Below, one piece after another: positions 28,629 through 35,415 of a DNA stretch of 53,523 bases. This DNA comes from SAR86 cluster bacterium AG-422-P06 (GTDB lineage Bacteria; Pseudomonadota; Gammaproteobacteria; Magnimaribacterales; TMED112). The DNA lies in the NCBI GenBank assembly GCA_003213455.1, contig QCMX01000003.1, forward strand, positions 1-53,523, given 5' to 3'. Position 1 is the first letter of the stretch. Every line of letters starts with the position of its first letter. Made by a program: the position numbers and the translations under genes. Under the pieces are notes generated by a model. That model was not told where the DNA came from, did not search any database, and worked only from the letters and a program-made list of their open reading frames with translations.

Positions 28629-31480
28629 TATGGATCTATTCTAGGTGAGGTACCTAATCCAGCCCCATAAACTACTGCATTTAACCATAGTCTGCTTGTT
28701 CCTAGTGCTGCACCTCTAAAGTTTGGCTCTCCTGAAAATAAAATTACCTGGCCTCTACCAACCCTTTCTCGTGTAAGGTAGGCTGAGTTTGCAATTCTTT
28801 GTGAAGCTTCAGGCCAAACTAAGCCACTCATTTTTACATTGAGATCTGTATTAGGCGGCATATCAGACCAGTTAATTGTTCTATAGGTTGTAGCTTCTTT
28901 GTTTTCAATTATCTGTCCCACTCGAACAGCTGCTTCAGAGTTATTGCTAGTCATAAGAACAGGGTTATTGCCATAAAGAACGGGGAGGGTATCTATTGTT
29001 CCAAACGTTAACCAATGCTCATTATCAATTCTTCCTGCAACAATAGCACCAGATGGCATAAACAAAGACTGCCACTTATCCCTCATTTCTAATTGCGCTT
29101 TATTGAATTTGTTTTTACTAACTTCCCAAGGGTATTCAACTTCAAAATCTACCTTATTTTCGTTAACCTTTTGCATATCAATTTCTACGCTCAATGCTCC
29201 AAATTCACGCTGTAGATCCATGTTATAGGCTTCACTTTTATCGAATGTGCTTGAAATTTGTCTAACTGAACCAATTCCATTTTCAGATGCAAGACTTCTT
29301 GAACTTCCATTGTGAGCAATTAAGGTACCACCTTGTTTAACCCAATCTCTTATGCTGCTCATTTCAGAGTTTGATAGCCCTTGATAGCCACTTGGCATAA
29401 TAATTGTGTTGTAACGGGTTAAATCACCATAACTAACAGATGAGCCATTTACCATGCTATGTCTAATGCCCAGGTGGTGATCTAAAGACCACCAACTTAC
29501 ACCCACATCATATGAGCTGAAGTTTTGCTGTGCCATTAATGCAATTTGTGGTCGTTCTAAAAGCCTGAAATGTCTACCACCCCAATCTGGAAGTTCCTCA
29601 GGTCCAAAACCTGAATCTATTGATACAACTGAAATGCTTAAATCACTAGCCACAGACCCAACAACAGAGCTTAAATTTTCAAAATTTGGATTATCCATTT
29701 CAATAACAACTACGCTGCCTCGTGGAAGGTTTTGGTCTGAAAGAATAGATTCTTTGTCTATAATTCTAACCTCAATACCAAGCTCCATAAGTCTTGCAGC
29801 GAAGGCTACAGAGCGATCATCTATCCCATTTACAGCCCACATAAGAGCATCTTTATTGATAGTATTGTCTATTTTTGATGGTTCCCATTTCGAAAGATTT
29901 CCTTGTATATTCTCTTGAACAGTAACTGCTTCTAGGCCGTACATCATGGTTAAGTTAAAAGCTGTTGTGTCATACATTATTGAAGAGCCATTCTTTAAAG
30001 TTTGTCTTCTTTCCTCTTCCAGGACTGACTCAATTATTTCAGCATCAAATTCAAGTATTGCTGCTATTAAAGGTGCTTCTGGCTGAAGATTTGGAATAAT
30101 CATGCTACCAGCTGGTATTACATAATTCTCTTGAGAATCACCAGTTTGTTTTAAAGCAGATTTAGTCTGAATAGGTTTGGTATTTAAATAAATTTCAATA
30201 TCTTGAGCTTGGAGTTTCTTAGCAAAAGTATTAAGTCTTCCTATATTTTCTGTAGGCAATACAACAAAGGTTTGATTAGCAAATTCACTATTTTTAGAGA
30301 CATTATATTTTCTTCCATCCCAGAAATCTTGATACATAGCCTTTGTATGTTTTTCAAGAGTTTTAAGGTTAGCTAAGGTACTAACAAACTGGTGATGGAC
30401 TGATTCTTTATATGATTGAATCGTTCCCTCAGGTCTTCTTACACCATCTTCAGACATTCTAGATTGCTCATATAAGATCCCTAAACTTCCTCTAAATTGA
30501 ATATAAAAAGAGTAGCCAGGATAGAGGTCTTCATGCCATTCACCAGTATAAAATCGCCAATTATTATCATCAAAAGCTTTTGCTTGATCATCAGCAAAAA
30601 CATTACCCCATTTAATTAAATCTCTGTCTATATTTGTATTTATTGGTTCTCTTGGAGGCCCAGTCATAAAGGTATCTTGGGCACCCATCTCATGACCATC
30701 AACAAGAATTTGTGGACGCCATTTATTGATTAAAGGTACTCTTCCTTGAGTTTCAGGTTGAGTAAGGTAAAACCAATCTCTATTCAGATCGAAGTAATAA
30801 TGATTTGTTCTTGCATAAGGCCAGTCGCCTGAATGTAAAAGAGATTGATCATCATAATTTGGTGCTGTTCCTCTATATTGTTCAAGGGATTTTACGAACC
30901 TATCTCTACCATCTGGATTCATCATAGGGTCAACAATTACTATCATATTATCTAGCATGTTAGTAACAGCATTATCTTTACTTGCTATTAGGTGATAAAT
31001 AATACCTAATGCTGCATCTGCACCAGATGTCTCGTTACCATGGATAGAATAGGCCATCCAAGCAGTTGCTGGTAACGATTCGATTAAAGATTGAGCTTCA
31101 CGATTAGAAGTAGCTCTGGCATCTGAGAGTTTAGCAATAGATTTTTGGATATTATCTAAATTAGCAAGATTTTCAGGTGAGGATATATACAATGCAAACA
31201 ATGTGCGACCTTCATGTGTTTTGCCATATTCAATTACTTTTAGCCTGTCAGATTGTTGTGCATATGCTCTTATAGCGTTTTCAATCTGATAAGGGCTAGC
31301 TACTCTAGTACCATAATCAAAATCAAGAAAATTGTCAGGATGGCTGATAGTATCTAGATAATTACCATTAAGAATAGTATTTGAATATAAATCTTTCGAT
31401 AAAGAAGTTGGTTTCATTAAATCTCCAATTAAATAATTAGAGGAGAGTAGGGTGAGTAACATTAAAAATCTGTAAATCAT
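28628..31480 (-). CDS. Secreted M14 zinc carboxypeptidase with C-terminal GATase1-like domain
   Basis: Signal peptide; IHGNE (HxxE), NPDGR, DLNRD and DGHEM motifs; WVKQGGTLIA. Confidence 0.9.
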   Translation of the reverse strand: MIYRFLMLLTLLSSNYLIGDLMKPTSLSKDLYSNTILNGNYLDTISHPDNFLDFDYGTRVASPYQIENAIRAYAQQSDRLKVIEYGKTHEGRTLFALYISSPENLANLDNIQKSIAKLSDARATSNREAQSLIESLPATAWMAYSIHGNETSGADAALGIIYHLIASKDNAVTNMLDNMIVIVDPMMNPDGRDRFVKSLEQYRGTAPNYDDQSLLHSGDWPYARTNHYYFDLNRDWFYLTQPETQGRVPLINKWRPQILVDGHEMGAQDTFMTGPPREPINTNIDRDLIKWGNVFADDQAKAFDDNNWRFYTGEWHEDLYPGYSFYIQFRGSLGILYEQSRMSEDGVRRPEGTIQSYKESVHHQFVSTLANLKTLEKHTKAMYQDFWDGRKYNVSKNSEFANQTFVVLPTENIGRLNTFAKKLQAQDIEIYLNTKPIQTKSALKQTGDSQENYVIPAGSMIIPNLQPEAPLIAAILEFDAEIIESVLEEERRQTLKNGSSIMYDTTAFNLTMMYGLEAVTVQENIQGNLSKWEPSKIDNTINKDALMWAVNGIDDRSVAFAARLMELGIEVRIIDKESILSDQNLPRGSVVVIEMDNPNFENLSSVVGSVASDLSISVVSIDSGFGPEELPDWGGRHFRLLERPQIALMAQQNFSSYDVGVSWWSLDHHLGIRHSMVNGSSVSYGDLTRYNTIIMPSGYQGLSNSEMSSIRDWVKQGGTLIAHNGSSRSLASENGIGSVRQISSTFDKSEAYNMDLQREFGALSVEIDMQKVNENKVDFEVEYPWEVSKNKFNKAQLEMRDKWQSLFMPSGAIVAGRIDNEHWLTFGTIDTLPVLYGNNPVLMTSNNSEAAVRVGQIIENKEATTYRTINWSDMPPNTDLNVKMSGLVWPEASQRIANSAYLTRERVGRGQVILFSGEPNFRGAALGTSRLWLNAVVYGAGLGTSPRIDP

Positions 31481-31797
31481 AAAAAATCCGATAATTGAGT
31501 AAATTTATTCAATATTAATATAAAAAATTAAAAAAATTGTTCGATTTATGCAAAAAATTCAAAATAGGGCCCAGAAAGCTTTTCTAGAAGAAATTATTGA
31601 AAATGTGAGATAGTAGTCAACTAATTATTAGAGACATATCTTAAACGTGAAATTTAAGAGTAATTTTTTTCTTCAAAATAATATTTTTTTAGCAATTTCA
31701 TAAATTTTAAAAACTAAGCAATTTTTTTTAGATATTTTTTTCGATCAATTACAAACTACAAAAATATATAAATTTTCTCAGGGTAGGTTAGTACTTT

Positions 31798-31818
31798 TTT
31801 TCCACACTTTTATCCACA
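31798..31818 (+). promoter_or_regulatory. Two tandem DnaA boxes adjacent to dif
   Basis: TTTTCCACA (31798-31806), ctt, TTATCCACA (31810-31818); both fit TTWTNCACA. Confidence 0.7.
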
Positions 31819-31826
31819 TGCAAATA

Positions 31827-31854
31827 ACTTCGCATAATATATATTATGTTAAAT
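31827..31854 (+). other. dif site (XerC/XerD chromosome dimer resolution)
   Basis: ACTTCGCATAA-TATATA-TTATGTTAAAT: XerD arm identical to the E. coli arm, XerC arm sharing CGCATAA, 6-bp spacer; lies in the largest intergenic gap. Confidence 0.95.
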
Positions 31855-31944
31855 ATATATAAGGATAAAATGTATTAAGTACATGCTTTAAATAGCTTAT
31901 TCTATATGGTTATTAGGAGATTATTAAATAATAGATAAAAATTT

Positions 31945-31971
31945 ATTTAACATAATAATCTTATGATTATG
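31945..31971 (-). repeat. Inverted degenerate dif-like site (perfect XerD arm, 5-bp spacer, partial XerC arm)
   Basis: ATTTAACATAA (31945-31955), TAATC, TTATGattatg. Confidence 0.65.
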
Positions 31972-32440
31972 AATACCAAGGATGTTTGCCGTATTTATTC
32001 TTAGTTACCCTAGTGTTTGTATGTATATATTCAGAAAAACCTCTTACAACGTTATCTATATAACTTTGTAATCTATGCTTTATGTAAAGATGCCACAATA
32101 ACCATTTAATTATTTTATTTTTATATGGTAATTCTGGTTCTATAGTAATTTTCAGTGAAGATGCCTTTGAATTTCCTTCTACAAGCCATTTTACTCTAGC
32201 TACCTTACTCTTTACCCCTATATCTAGAACATATCCGCTCTCATCCCATTTAATGAATTCTCTACGGTATTTAAGCTTATTTAAATATTTAACATAATCT
32301 ATGGAGCCTTTTCCTGGCCATTTCTCTATTTTATTTTCTATACAAAATGGATGATAATTCTCTAAATTTCCAGGCACCCGTATAGCCTCTAATATTTTAG
32401 ATTTTTCCTTTTTGAATGTTTTTTTAGCTTCTACATACAT
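31967..32440 (-). CDS. Hypothetical protein, probably SRPBCC/START-like fold
   Basis: 157-aa Lys-rich ORF with PGNLENYHPFC..WPG and REFIKW. Fold assignment is inference. Confidence 0.6.
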   Translation of the reverse strand: MYVEAKKTFKKEKSKILEAIRVPGNLENYHPFCIENKIEKWPGKGSIDYVKYLNKLKYRREFIKWDESGYVLDIGVKSKVARVKWLVEGNSKASSLKITIEPELPYKNKIIKWLLWHLYIKHRLQSYIDNVVRGFSEYIHTNTRVTKNKYGKHPWYS

Positions 32441-32931
32441 TTTTCATAGTATCTAACACCATATTCTGGATTTGAATATGCTTCAGAAACCTTTCTAAAG
32501 CCCATTTTTTCATGAAATTTAATTGATTCCTTATTTATTGGAACGATATTAACTTCCGCACAAATTGGTAAGCCTTTTTTTAAGCAAATATTATCTATTT
32601 TACTATATATGAAAGTTCCTAAACCCTTATTTTTAAAGCCTTTAACCACGCCTATACGGTCAATGTAGAAGAATCTTTTAAACCTTTTTTTGAAGAATTT
32701 ATAATTCATTGATTGGTATTGTGAATCTTCTCTAAAACATACCAAAAACGCGCAAATCTGGTTTTTGCTAGTAAGAAATATGCTGAAGTTTGATTTATCA
32801 ACTAAATCTCTTAGGTTATCTACAGTTCTAAGAGGCCCTAAAAATGGGTTATAACCTTCATTTATTTCAAATATTTCTTTTAAAGTTTCCTCATTAGCAG
32901 CTTTTAGATCGTGTATTTGAATATCATTCAT
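32431..32931 (-). CDS. GNAT-family acetyltransferase
   Basis: SMNYKFF, FFYIDRIGV..KNKGLG, CAEVN and SIKFHEKMGF motifs. Confidence 0.88.
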   Translation of the reverse strand: MNDIQIHDLKAANEETLKEIFEINEGYNPFLGPLRTVDNLRDLVDKSNFSIFLTSKNQICAFLVCFREDSQYQSMNYKFFKKRFKRFFYIDRIGVVKGFKNKGLGTFIYSKIDNICLKKGLPICAEVNIVPINKESIKFHEKMGFRKVSEAYSNPEYGVRYYEKCM

Positions 32932-32981
32932 TTTGGTAATTTAAGTGACATTTAAAGCTAACCTAGTAAAATAGGCAACCA

Positions 32982-33200
32982 ATGGCAGGAAAAGATACTA
33001 TTGAAATGCAAGGGACCGTTATGGAGGTCCTGCCTAACACTGTTTTTAGGGTGAAGCTTGAAAATGACCATGTCATTACAGCCCACATATCAGGCAGAAT
33101 GAGAAAAAACTACATTCGTATTCTTAATGGAGATAAGGTCACTGTTGAAATGTCGCCTTATGATCTTTCTAAGGGACGTATAACCTTTAGATCTAAGTAA
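32982..33200 (+). CDS. infA: Translation initiation factor IF-1
   Basis: [25 protein letters not shown]; 72 aa. Confidence 0.98.
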
Positions 33201-35415
33201 TTCTCTCTTTTCTATTAACTATTTTTAGGTCAATTTTTCCACTTTTTACAGTTAGTTGCACTGAACTTCCTCTTTTTATCGAGTCCTCAATTAACATGGT
33301 AGATATAGGCTTCTTGATTAATTTATCTACAGCTCTAGATAATGGTCTAGCACCTAATTTAGGGTCATAACCTTCATCTAAAACTAATTTTATTACATCG
33401 TCATTAAACTCAATATCTATGCCTTTCTCATTAAGTTTGGCCTCAACCTCAATGATGAGTTTTTTGACAACTGATTCTAAGTTATTGTTTGTGAGGCTAT
33501 TGAAATTAACAATACCATCGAGTCTATTTCTAAACTCAGGAGTGAATGCTTTTGATACTGCTTTCTCAAATTTATCGTCTGTGCCCTGCTCTATGAAACC
33601 TACAGACTCTCCCTCAGCCTCTACTGCTCCTGTATTTGAGGTCATTACGATAATTGTATTTTTGAAGTTAATATTTCTGCCATTGCTATCTGCTAAATTG
33701 CCGTAATCTAAGATCTGCAGGAGTATATTGAAAATATCAGGGTGTGCCTTTTCAATTTCATCTAAAAGCAATACAGAATGAGGCTTCTTATTGATTTCCT
33801 CTGTAAGATATCCCCCCTGCTCATAACCAACATATCCTGGAGGAGATCCTATGAGTTTTGAGATACTATGTTTCTCCATAAATTCAGACATATCAAGCCT
33901 GACAAATTCAATCCCCAAGAAGAATGCTAATTGTTTTGTAAGCTCTGTTTTGCCAACTCCAGTAGGACCGGTAAAAAGAAATGAGCAAATAGGTTTTTCA
34001 TCATTGCCAATGCCTGCTTTCGAGGTTTTAACTGCTGAAACAACGTCATCTACTGCATGATCTTGGCCAAATATTACAGATTTCAAGTTGCCCTCTAAAT
34101 TATTAAGATTTTCCTTACTAGATGCGTTAAGTTGCATTGTAGGAATTTTTGTAATTTTAGAAATTAAGCTTTCTATATCTGACTTTCTGATAATCTTCCC
34201 TTTTGATTTTGATAATTTCTTTTGTGATCCAGCTTCATCAATTAAATCAATAGCTTTATCTGGCAATTTAGAGTCTTGTAAGTACTTATTTGAGAGCTCA
34301 ACAGCTGATTTAAGGGCTTCTTTTGAATAAGTTATGCCATGATAGTGCTCAAACTTATTTTTTAAGCCTTCGAGGATCTGAACTGCTTCTTCAGTTGAAG
34401 GTTCATCGATTTGTACTTTTTGAAATCTACGAGATAACGAATTGTTGCGCTCAAAAATTTGACGATACTCTTTGTACGTCGTTGCACCAATACATTTAAT
34501 GTCCCCTCTAGCTAGCGCTGGCTTTAATAGATTAGAAGCATCGAGAGCTCCACCTGAAGCTGACCCTGCACCTATTATTGTGTGAATTTCATCAACAAAT
34601 AATATTATTTTCTGCGACTTCTTTAGAAAATCCATCATAGATTTCATTTTCTTTTCAAAGTCACCTCGATATTTTGTTCCTGCGACAAGACTTCCTACAT
34701 CTAGAGACATTACTTGATAATCAGTGAATATTTCTGGAGCTTTTCCATCTGCTATTGATTTAGCCAGACCTTCAGCAATAGCTGTTTTACCTACACCAGA
34801 TTCTCCAACTAATATTGGGTTATTTTTTCTTCTTCTACCTAAAACTTGAAAAAGCCTACTAAGAGTATCGGTTCTACCAATAAGCGGATCTATATCACCG
34901 TCTTTTGCGAGATTATTTAGGTTTGTTAAAAATTCAGGATGTGTTTCGCTTTCTTTAGGAGATTCCTCGACATTTTCCTCTGTTTCTACAGCAGTATTCT
35001 TACCATGTGAAATGTATTCGACGACATCTAATCTAGAGATATTTCTTCTGCTCAGCATATAAACTGCATAACTTTCTTTCTCCGAAAAAAGCGCAGCTAG
35101 TAAATTTTCACCATTAACTTCTGTTTTTCCGCTGGATTGAACATGAAAAATTGCTCTTTGCAATACTCTCTGGAAAGCCAAGGTTGGCTGAATTTCCTTA
35201 TTTTCTGTAGCTTTAGGAACATTCTTTTTTATATATTCTTTGATTTCTTTTTGAAGGCTTTCAATATCTATAGACAGGTGATCAAGCACCTTTCTGGATG
35301 AATCTTCCTGAGTTAAAACAAGTAAAAGATGTTCAATTGTTACGAACTCATCATTATTATCAGAGCACTCTTTGAACAATAAATTAAGAGTATTTTCTAA
35401 ATCTTTTGAAAGCAT
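33193..35415 (-). CDS. clpA: ATP-dependent Clp protease ATPase subunit ClpA
   Basis: Two AAA+ modules ([16 protein letters not shown]), [13 protein letters not shown] and VGF loop; follows clpS. Confidence 0.97.

Follow-up and report, generated by a model that had tools for sequence, protein, structure and literature searches.

What does an inverted copy of the XerD arm represent when it stands 90 bp beyond a chromosomal dif site? The question is raised by the window analysed here, the whole 53,523-nucleotide stretch of contig C3 of an assembly of 687,513 bp in 31 contigs (66% complete). An initial annotation, made from the letters, had likened the arrangement to an Xer attachment structure of the CTX-phage type and had explained it as either the scar of an Xer-exploiting element or a domesticated accessory site. 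We compared the locus across its genus, its order, public metagenomes and a wider set of bacterial species, and weighed these readings against others in which the second arm serves the host.

The dif site and the arm beyond it

The 28-bp site (31827-31854) reads ACTTCGCATAA-TATATA-TTATGTTAAAT, lies between genes, and divides into an 11-bp XerC arm, a 6-bp centre and a conserved 11-bp XerD arm, the anatomy that PMC2731167 gives for proteobacterial dif, in which the 11-bp XerC arm varies, the 11-bp XerD arm is conserved, 6 bp separate the two, and the site is intergenic and low in G+C; the letters bear out the canonical dif that had been annotated at 31827. A search for the dif core pattern, with one mismatch tolerated, gave one match in the window's own assembly and no second dif anywhere in its 687,513 bp, and it matched 51 of 61 genomes of the order, mostly once per genome. 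In a closed relative (G016), dif lies at 406.9 kb and the cumulative GC-skew maximum at 419 kb, 12 kb apart, the maximum being that of a 400-kb stretch cut out around dif, and over the same 400 kb the KOPS-type word GGGNAGGG is oriented toward dif 9:1. The site is single-copy and sits at a terminus-type position near the GC-skew switch. Two single-contig relatives begin at dnaA (base 137), and on the closed contigs G016:C1 and G007:C1 the distance from dnaA to dif is 38-40% of the circle and not the 50% of a point opposite.

The recombination machinery is best seen in five near-complete relatives, in which XerD scores 344-367 bits against a curated cut-off of 329.6 and which also encode a second Xer recombinase and FtsK. 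The FtsK gamma domain was detected in 22 of 29 genomes of the genus as well as in the window's own assembly, which likewise holds an XerC-type gene. No xerD gene was found in that assembly at its 66% completeness; in each of the five relatives checked, xerD precedes dif by 34-43 kb, so the genome's own copy would fall beyond the start of the contig. The stretch 31501-33500, which spans the dif intergenic region, orf157 and a GNAT gene, has the lowest G+C of the window (28.4% versus about 35%). In Logan contigs from four marine runs, summed depth jumps 10-100 fold over dif (31810-31872 of the window) and contigs end there; assemblies break at dif because its 28-mer is common to many organisms in the same samples.

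Table 1. Features of the dif locus, in coordinates of the window
Feature	Position	Strand	Description
Chromosomal dif	31827..31854	+	XerC arm 31827-31837, central hexamer TATATA 31838-31843, XerD arm 31844-31854
90-bp spacer between XerD arms	31855..31944	.	Sequence not conserved, length constrained, top strand G>C
Orphan XerD half-site (candidate)	31944..31956	-	Invariant 13-mer TATTTAACATAAT; XerD arm 31945-31955, inverted, outer face toward dif
Annotated "5-bp spacer + TTATG"	31956..31965	.	TAATC 31956-31960, TTATG 31961-31965; not conserved, outside the element
Third XerD-arm copy	32287..32297	-	Inside orf157; codons for D-Y-V-K-Y
orf157	31967..32440	-	157-codon ORF, predicted Bet v1/START-like fold; abuts the orphan site, not part of the element

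The second arm is an exact reverse complement of the dif XerD arm and starts exactly 90 bp past dif, just as had been annotated. Across both strands of the 687,513-bp assembly the XerD-arm 11-mer occurs three times, at 31844 (+), 31945 (-) and 32287 (-), all within 450 bp; five relatives of about 1 Mb carry three to five copies per genome, two of which are the dif arm and its neighbour. The remaining copies in those relatives are scattered, not clustered near dif, and come at about the control rate (20 matches versus 15 for the reversed pattern, five genomes in total). This background (about 1-1.5e-6 per position and strand) puts the probability that a genome has a perfect inverted arm 89-100 bp from dif by accident at roughly 2e-5, and the pair is far beyond chance. 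The third copy, at 32287, was ruled out as part of an XerD cluster and is a codon-driven coincidence: 11 of 23 orf157 homologues encode DYVKY, five of the 11 with a perfect arm and six with synonymous differences.

Conservation of the pair and the phage-type readings

Dif neighbourhoods were taken from all 26 same-genus genomes that carry dif and aligned with the window's own, 27 in all. [quoted passage not shown] In this alignment dif and the 13-mer TATTTAACATAAT are two islands amid diverged intergenic DNA, with mean pairwise identities (351 pairs) of 100% for the 13-mer and 96% for dif beside 46% for the spacer and 50% for the 100 columns upstream. Past the 13-mer nothing is conserved among the 27 genomes. 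The TAATC and TTATG that follow it here had been taken for a 5-bp spacer and the inner bases of an XerC arm; the letters are present, but they are peculiar to this genome and carry no meaning, and a TTATGA that recurs further on, at variable distance, is the stop plus the last codon of the neighbouring ORF. Since conservation ends with the 13-mer, the second site reads as an XerD half-site, not as a dif-like site.

The distribution of the pair follows the genus. It is present in 27 of 266 genomes of the order, all of this genus and once in each, and in none of 236 genomes from 21 other genera of the order; three genomes of the genus (G003, G010 and G012) have neither the pair nor a dif match, and in these the dif locus is probably unassembled. 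A MITE or other mobile copy was ruled out by the single occurrence per genome. A metagenome scan with the 24-base dif core gave at least 80 loci, a few of them too short or ambiguous to classify. Among the loci listed, the five with a perfect arm at 89-92 bp are the five with genus-type neighbours (5/5), that is, an InfA 90-97% identical or the order amidase-dif-orf157, and no arm stands, among the loci listed, where InfA (65-72%) or ClpA (about 50%) resembles other families. Contigs of four public marine runs, from different studies, hold many variants in the spacer and in 31958-31965 (at 31958, 31960 and 31965 in a divergent contig); among the variants listed for the four runs none falls in dif or in 31939-31957, even in a contig differing at 24 positions, the contigs being of a kind that drops rare variants. 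In family f3 (L012, L013) about 10 bp separate dif from the end of the orf157 homologues, and both spacer and second arm are absent; about 100 bp, spacer plus arm, was therefore gained on the line to this genus.

In the genus the locus usually runs from an M14 peptidase (or amidase) gene through dif and the orphan arm to orf157, a GNAT acetyltransferase gene, infA and clpA. The arm travels with dif and not with orf157, since L037 and L039 keep it despite having neither orf157 nor the GNAT gene, as does L031, which lacks orf157 alone. The orf157 product gave no Pfam, NCBIfam or PHROG match; its AlphaFold2 model (pLDDT 96.8) has a Bet v1/START-type helix-grip fold, for which the top Foldseek matches in the PDB are PR-10, PYL and bacterial START-like proteins (E about 1e-6, TM 0.5-0.7), and it is predicted to be an ordinary ligand-binding host protein. 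An orf157 homologue adjoins dif also in two genera of another family (L010, L012, L013), at 41-48% identity. Comparisons by Pfam, NCBIfam, PHROG and Foldseek found no phage genes among the dif neighbours, in agreement with the initial annotation.

Could the 13-mer instead be bound by some other factor, or act as a regulatory signal of the neighbouring gene, and merely resemble an XerD arm? Its position 11-25 bp past the orf157 stop in most genus genomes would suit such a role, but we find it quite improbable: the 13-mer matches the genome's own XerD arm at 11 of 11 positions and includes the adjoining central-region base, it is kept where orf157 is absent, a promoter and terminator scan of 31400-32100 returned seven promoter-like sites against 6.2 expected and no terminator, and no Rfam family was found in the window. 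A 13-mer that is invariant while everything around it has diverged, and that lies always on the XerD side, inverted, at 89-92 or 100 bp and with no XerC arm, argues for selection on the 13-mer.

Selection of this kind bears directly on the phage-type readings. PMC4246890 describes attP1 and attP2 of CTXphi as inverted dif-like sites 90 bp apart that are used as a folded single strand, so the geometry named in the initial annotation is in print. By our own derivation, once such a hairpin had integrated, one end of the prophage would show the XerC arm of the host, then the XerD arm of the phage, its loop and its site in inverted form; the locus could then be a functionless relic, the left junction of an ancient CTX-type integration whose phage has since been deleted. 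The geometry fits that derived product (XerC arm from the host; XerD arm, loop and inverted XerD arm from the phage), the attP spacing reported in PMC4246890 fits as well, and about 100 bp was gained in this lineage relative to L012 and L013. A relic is nevertheless very unlikely, for neutral DNA cannot stay identical at 13 of 13 positions in 27 species-level genomes beside a spacer of 46% identity, there is no remnant of an XerC arm, no phage gene and no second dif, and only an illegitimate deletion could have removed the phage and spared the inverted arm. A CTX-type junction is conceivable as the starting point of a later domestication, though we doubt it.

Set against a CTX attP, the locus shares the separation of its inverted arms, about 90 bp there and 89-100 bp here. 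The second site keeps the XerD arm only, not XerC and XerD arms in both inverted sites, and neither inovirus genes nor a second bounding dif-type site was found, with tools that do recognise a real inovirus (viral contig L095, with RstA-type replication and RstB-, Ace- and Zot-like genes). With no conserved XerC arm, no inovirus genes and no second dif, the annotation as a CTX-type Xer attachment structure is not supported, and a dif plus an inverted dif-like arm is by itself no evidence for a CTX-type phage.

A further reading is an active attachment structure, in which the arms of a single strand would pair into an XerD-bound stem for recombination or for attachment of a mobile element. The arms do form a 13-bp perfect inverted repeat, and the centroid fold of 31827-31971 as single-stranded DNA contains the arm-arm stem. 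The stretch folds at -12.5 kcal/mol and 200 shuffled versions at -9.64 +/- 2.22 (z -1.29), 19 of them equally well or better; the minimum-energy structure of the stretch has no arm-arm pairing. Spacers folded no better than their shuffled versions in the five genomes tried, and consensus folding of 25 spacers (two of the 27 dropped for Ns) gave no structure besides the arm pairing. The base after the dif arm varies between A and T opposite an invariant partner, without compensation; no copies of the pair occur elsewhere in the genomes; the pattern turns up in only three viral contigs, all unrelated to this locus; and among the differences listed for the contigs of the four public runs, which cannot show rare forms, there are no arm-arm joints. 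We regard an active fold-back as highly improbable.

The spacer has properties of its own. Its top strand carries 12-19 G versus 3-11 C in 25 spacers (the window and 24 relatives), far above the local genome skew, and its orientation is the same in all genomes, the forward alignment beating the reverse complement in 97% of 300 pairs. An invertible switch was ruled out, no pair among the 300 being clearly better as reverse complement. Phased bending was likewise rejected, the spacers showing no AA/TT periodicity at 10-10.5 bp (z -0.4 and 1.9); the odd peaks seen at 9, 12 and 15 bp reflect relatedness among the sequences and carry, in our view, no meaning.

A probable host-maintained half-site and its possible roles

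Of the two explanations offered at the outset, the scar is disfavoured and the host accessory site favoured by the genus-wide invariance. An invariant presence in all relatives with no variable cargo had been named beforehand as the outcome that would favour a host function, and the arm is indeed perfect in all the aligned neighbourhoods, also where the neighbouring genes differ. From the comparison of sequences, the second site is best read as neither an attachment site nor a decaying scar, and it is probably a functional XerD-only accessory site of dif. The fuller statement, that it is an orphan XerD half-site of the genus's dif locus, maintained by the host and acting as a backstop for FtsK, is our preferred reading as a whole, held at somewhat less than an even chance.

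Mechanistically, the proposal rests on E. coli biochemistry. In vitro, E. coli XerD alone binds a dif half-site with a KD of about 10 nM (Graham et al. 2010, PMC2800217), half-site-bound XerD is described as stopping FtsK about 5-fold better at its outer than at its inner face (PMC2800217), and FtsK is reported to activate recombination only from the XerD side of dif, where it must load (PMC2673442). By analogy, one XerD monomer would bind the orphan half-site, and the outer faces of two XerD molecules would look at each other across about 90 bp; because the orphan XerD's outer face looks back at dif, we propose a stop of FtsK that depends on direction. FtsK arriving from the flank would meet the weak inner face of the orphan XerD, pass it and then stop at dif, and an FtsK that slipped or reversed would be held by the orphan's outer face, within the 90-bp interval beside the dif-bound XerD. 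The result would be a one-way gate that prolongs the stay of FtsK beside the XerD it must activate.

Granted a functional accessory site, this backstop mechanism is a tentative choice, a little short of an even bet. The length constraint could equally well reflect looping or another assembly, and the gate leaves the G>C skew of the spacer unexplained. A scan of 185,579 species with gaps of 80-110 bp brought up no match in E. coli; Xer/FtsK function in general therefore does not need the element. Neither FtsK gamma nor SMC showed a change peculiar to the genus that could account for the site being confined to it: loss of FtsK gamma was ruled out by its presence in the 22 genus genomes counted above, and a short SMC as a correlate of the genus was ruled out because it is order-wide.

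SMC is also at the centre of the main rival. XerD on the orphan half-site might unload or stall SMC just before dif, as at the XDS sites of Bacillus subtilis, where XerD is reported to unload Smc-ScpAB in the terminus (Karaboja et al. 2021, as cited in PMC11894783, PMC11840125, PMC10945525 and PMC12322038). In favour of this, the half-site has an XerD arm with no XerC arm, and an SMC homologue was found in all five near-complete relatives searched. We think this unlikely all the same: there is a single site and no terminus-wide array, other copies of the 11-mer coming at the control rate; the fixed orientation and the distance of 89-100 bp from dif would go unexplained; and SMC is short across the whole order, yet only this genus has the site. 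The order's SMC homologue is encoded by frames of 733-831 aa (G007, G009, G016, G023, G028, G030-G034) that match about positions 1-360/470 and 780/860-1181 of a 1181-position model, most of the coiled coil and the hinge region being unmatched.

The spacing is instead the strength of a reading in which the extra XerD raises local occupancy, or closes a loop of about 100 bp with the dif-bound recombinases, and would thereby help the XerCD-dif complex to assemble or give the DNA a form that suits another enzyme. Here the constrained length (23 of 27 spacers at 89-92 bp, the other four exactly 10 bp longer) and the fixed relative orientation speak for it. Against it, the spacers lack the 10-10.5 bp AA/TT periodicity, the +10 bp variant is a single clade and Psychromonas gaps range over 97-103 bp; we know of no XerD-XerD contact of the looping kind. 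Helical phasing is no more than a possibility, since the 10-bp jump is one event and the Psychromonas gaps are spread. Recruitment or looping of this kind therefore strikes us as distinctly unlikely.

In the usual view, the 28 bp of dif suffice by themselves. Should the conserved, oriented half-site prove functional, the resolution of chromosome dimers would in some bacteria be under a second layer of control, and the locus would offer a natural substrate both for the orientation-dependent stop of FtsK, so far seen only in vitro, and for the link between XerD and SMC, so far seen only in Bacillus.

Similar structures in other lineages and the nearest known systems

The arm-pair scan of the 185,579 species, with one genome per species, gaps of 80-110 bp and matches classified by eye, returned 43 stretches: 15 from this genus, 10 from Psychromonas species, one from an Alteromonadaceae MAG with the same dif, two from Vibrio sagamiensis, one from Thiothrix, two from a Verrucomicrobiota MAG, one from a Lentisphaeria MAG and 11 with no recognisable dif. 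A perfect inverted arm stands 97-103 bp past dif in Psychromonas (L053, L056, L057, L066, L069, L075, L078, L079, L091 and L094; L062 likewise), and the second site there is a small tandem set of a 10/11 arm-like copy, 4 bp, a perfect arm and a conserved 20-mer. Host genes lie beyond it, DUF3297 and GGDEF-EAL genes in L078; the Alteromonadaceae MAG has the same layout, with inverted XerD arm or arms in that range of gaps and host genes behind. Several Psychromonas spacers hold a GATC-containing palindrome. In the Lentisphaeria MAG (L070), two complete dif-like sites form a perfect inverted pair 80 bp apart, and two contigs of the Verrucomicrobiota MAG179 (L054, L061) each have a dif-like site and an inverted XerD arm at 89 bp.

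A viral contig allowed the Psychromonas structure to be set beside a real phage. L095, an IMG/VR contig of 8376 bp, bears a Psychromonas-type dif with a CTX-like inovirus on the XerC side; the ends of the contig do not overlap, and it looks like prophage plus host flank. Past the second site, L095 agrees with flanks of Psychromonas chromosomes at 72-77% identity, and tblastn (E <= 1e-4) with its inovirus proteins matched neither the window nor any of the 45 other loci of the pattern scan. The Psychromonas structure is therefore chromosomal as well, and a prophage attP was ruled out for it.

Evolutionarily, we posit that the two lineages may represent an undescribed, recurrent class of dif accessory element, in which one XerD-only half-site, or several, would face dif from about 90-100 bp past its XerD arm; the element would have arisen at least twice in Gammaproteobacteria (in this marine genus of about 1 Mb, and in Psychromonas as a small tandem array), may derive from a folded attachment site of the CTX type, and would confine FtsK or halt SMC. 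Taken jointly, these propositions are possible, with the chances on the whole against them. Psychromonas is culturable and carries the analogous structure, so the idea is directly testable.

A limited literature search brought up no natural XerD half-site described next to a chromosomal dif; closest among known systems are the XDS sites, the roadblock that XerD on a half-site forms in vitro, and the attP of CTX. The pdif modules of Acinetobacter plasmids share the alternating (inverted) orientation of Xer sites, but theirs are complete XerC/XerD sites that flank gene modules which shuffle. Complete sites around a gene cargo are not seen here; there is a half-site and a 90-bp non-coding spacer, with no change of orientation in 300 pairwise comparisons. 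CTXphi attP and its dif1 prophage junction (PMC4246890) have in common with this locus two inverted XerD arms about 90 bp apart beside dif. Here the second site lacks an XerC arm, neither inovirus genes nor a second dif was found, the fold of 31827-31971 is no better than that of shuffles, and the element is vertically inherited and invariant across the whole genus. The XDS sites of Bacillus subtilis, which we know through citing papers, are of XerD type, serve no recombination and lie in the terminus region, as would the half-site, which differs in being one site at a fixed distance and orientation to dif, in Gammaproteobacteria and with no dispersed array. In the in-vitro roadblock (PMC2800217) the substrate was artificial; the orphan arm is exactly such a half-site, and the asymmetry of the XerD faces would give its natural arrangement a directional meaning.
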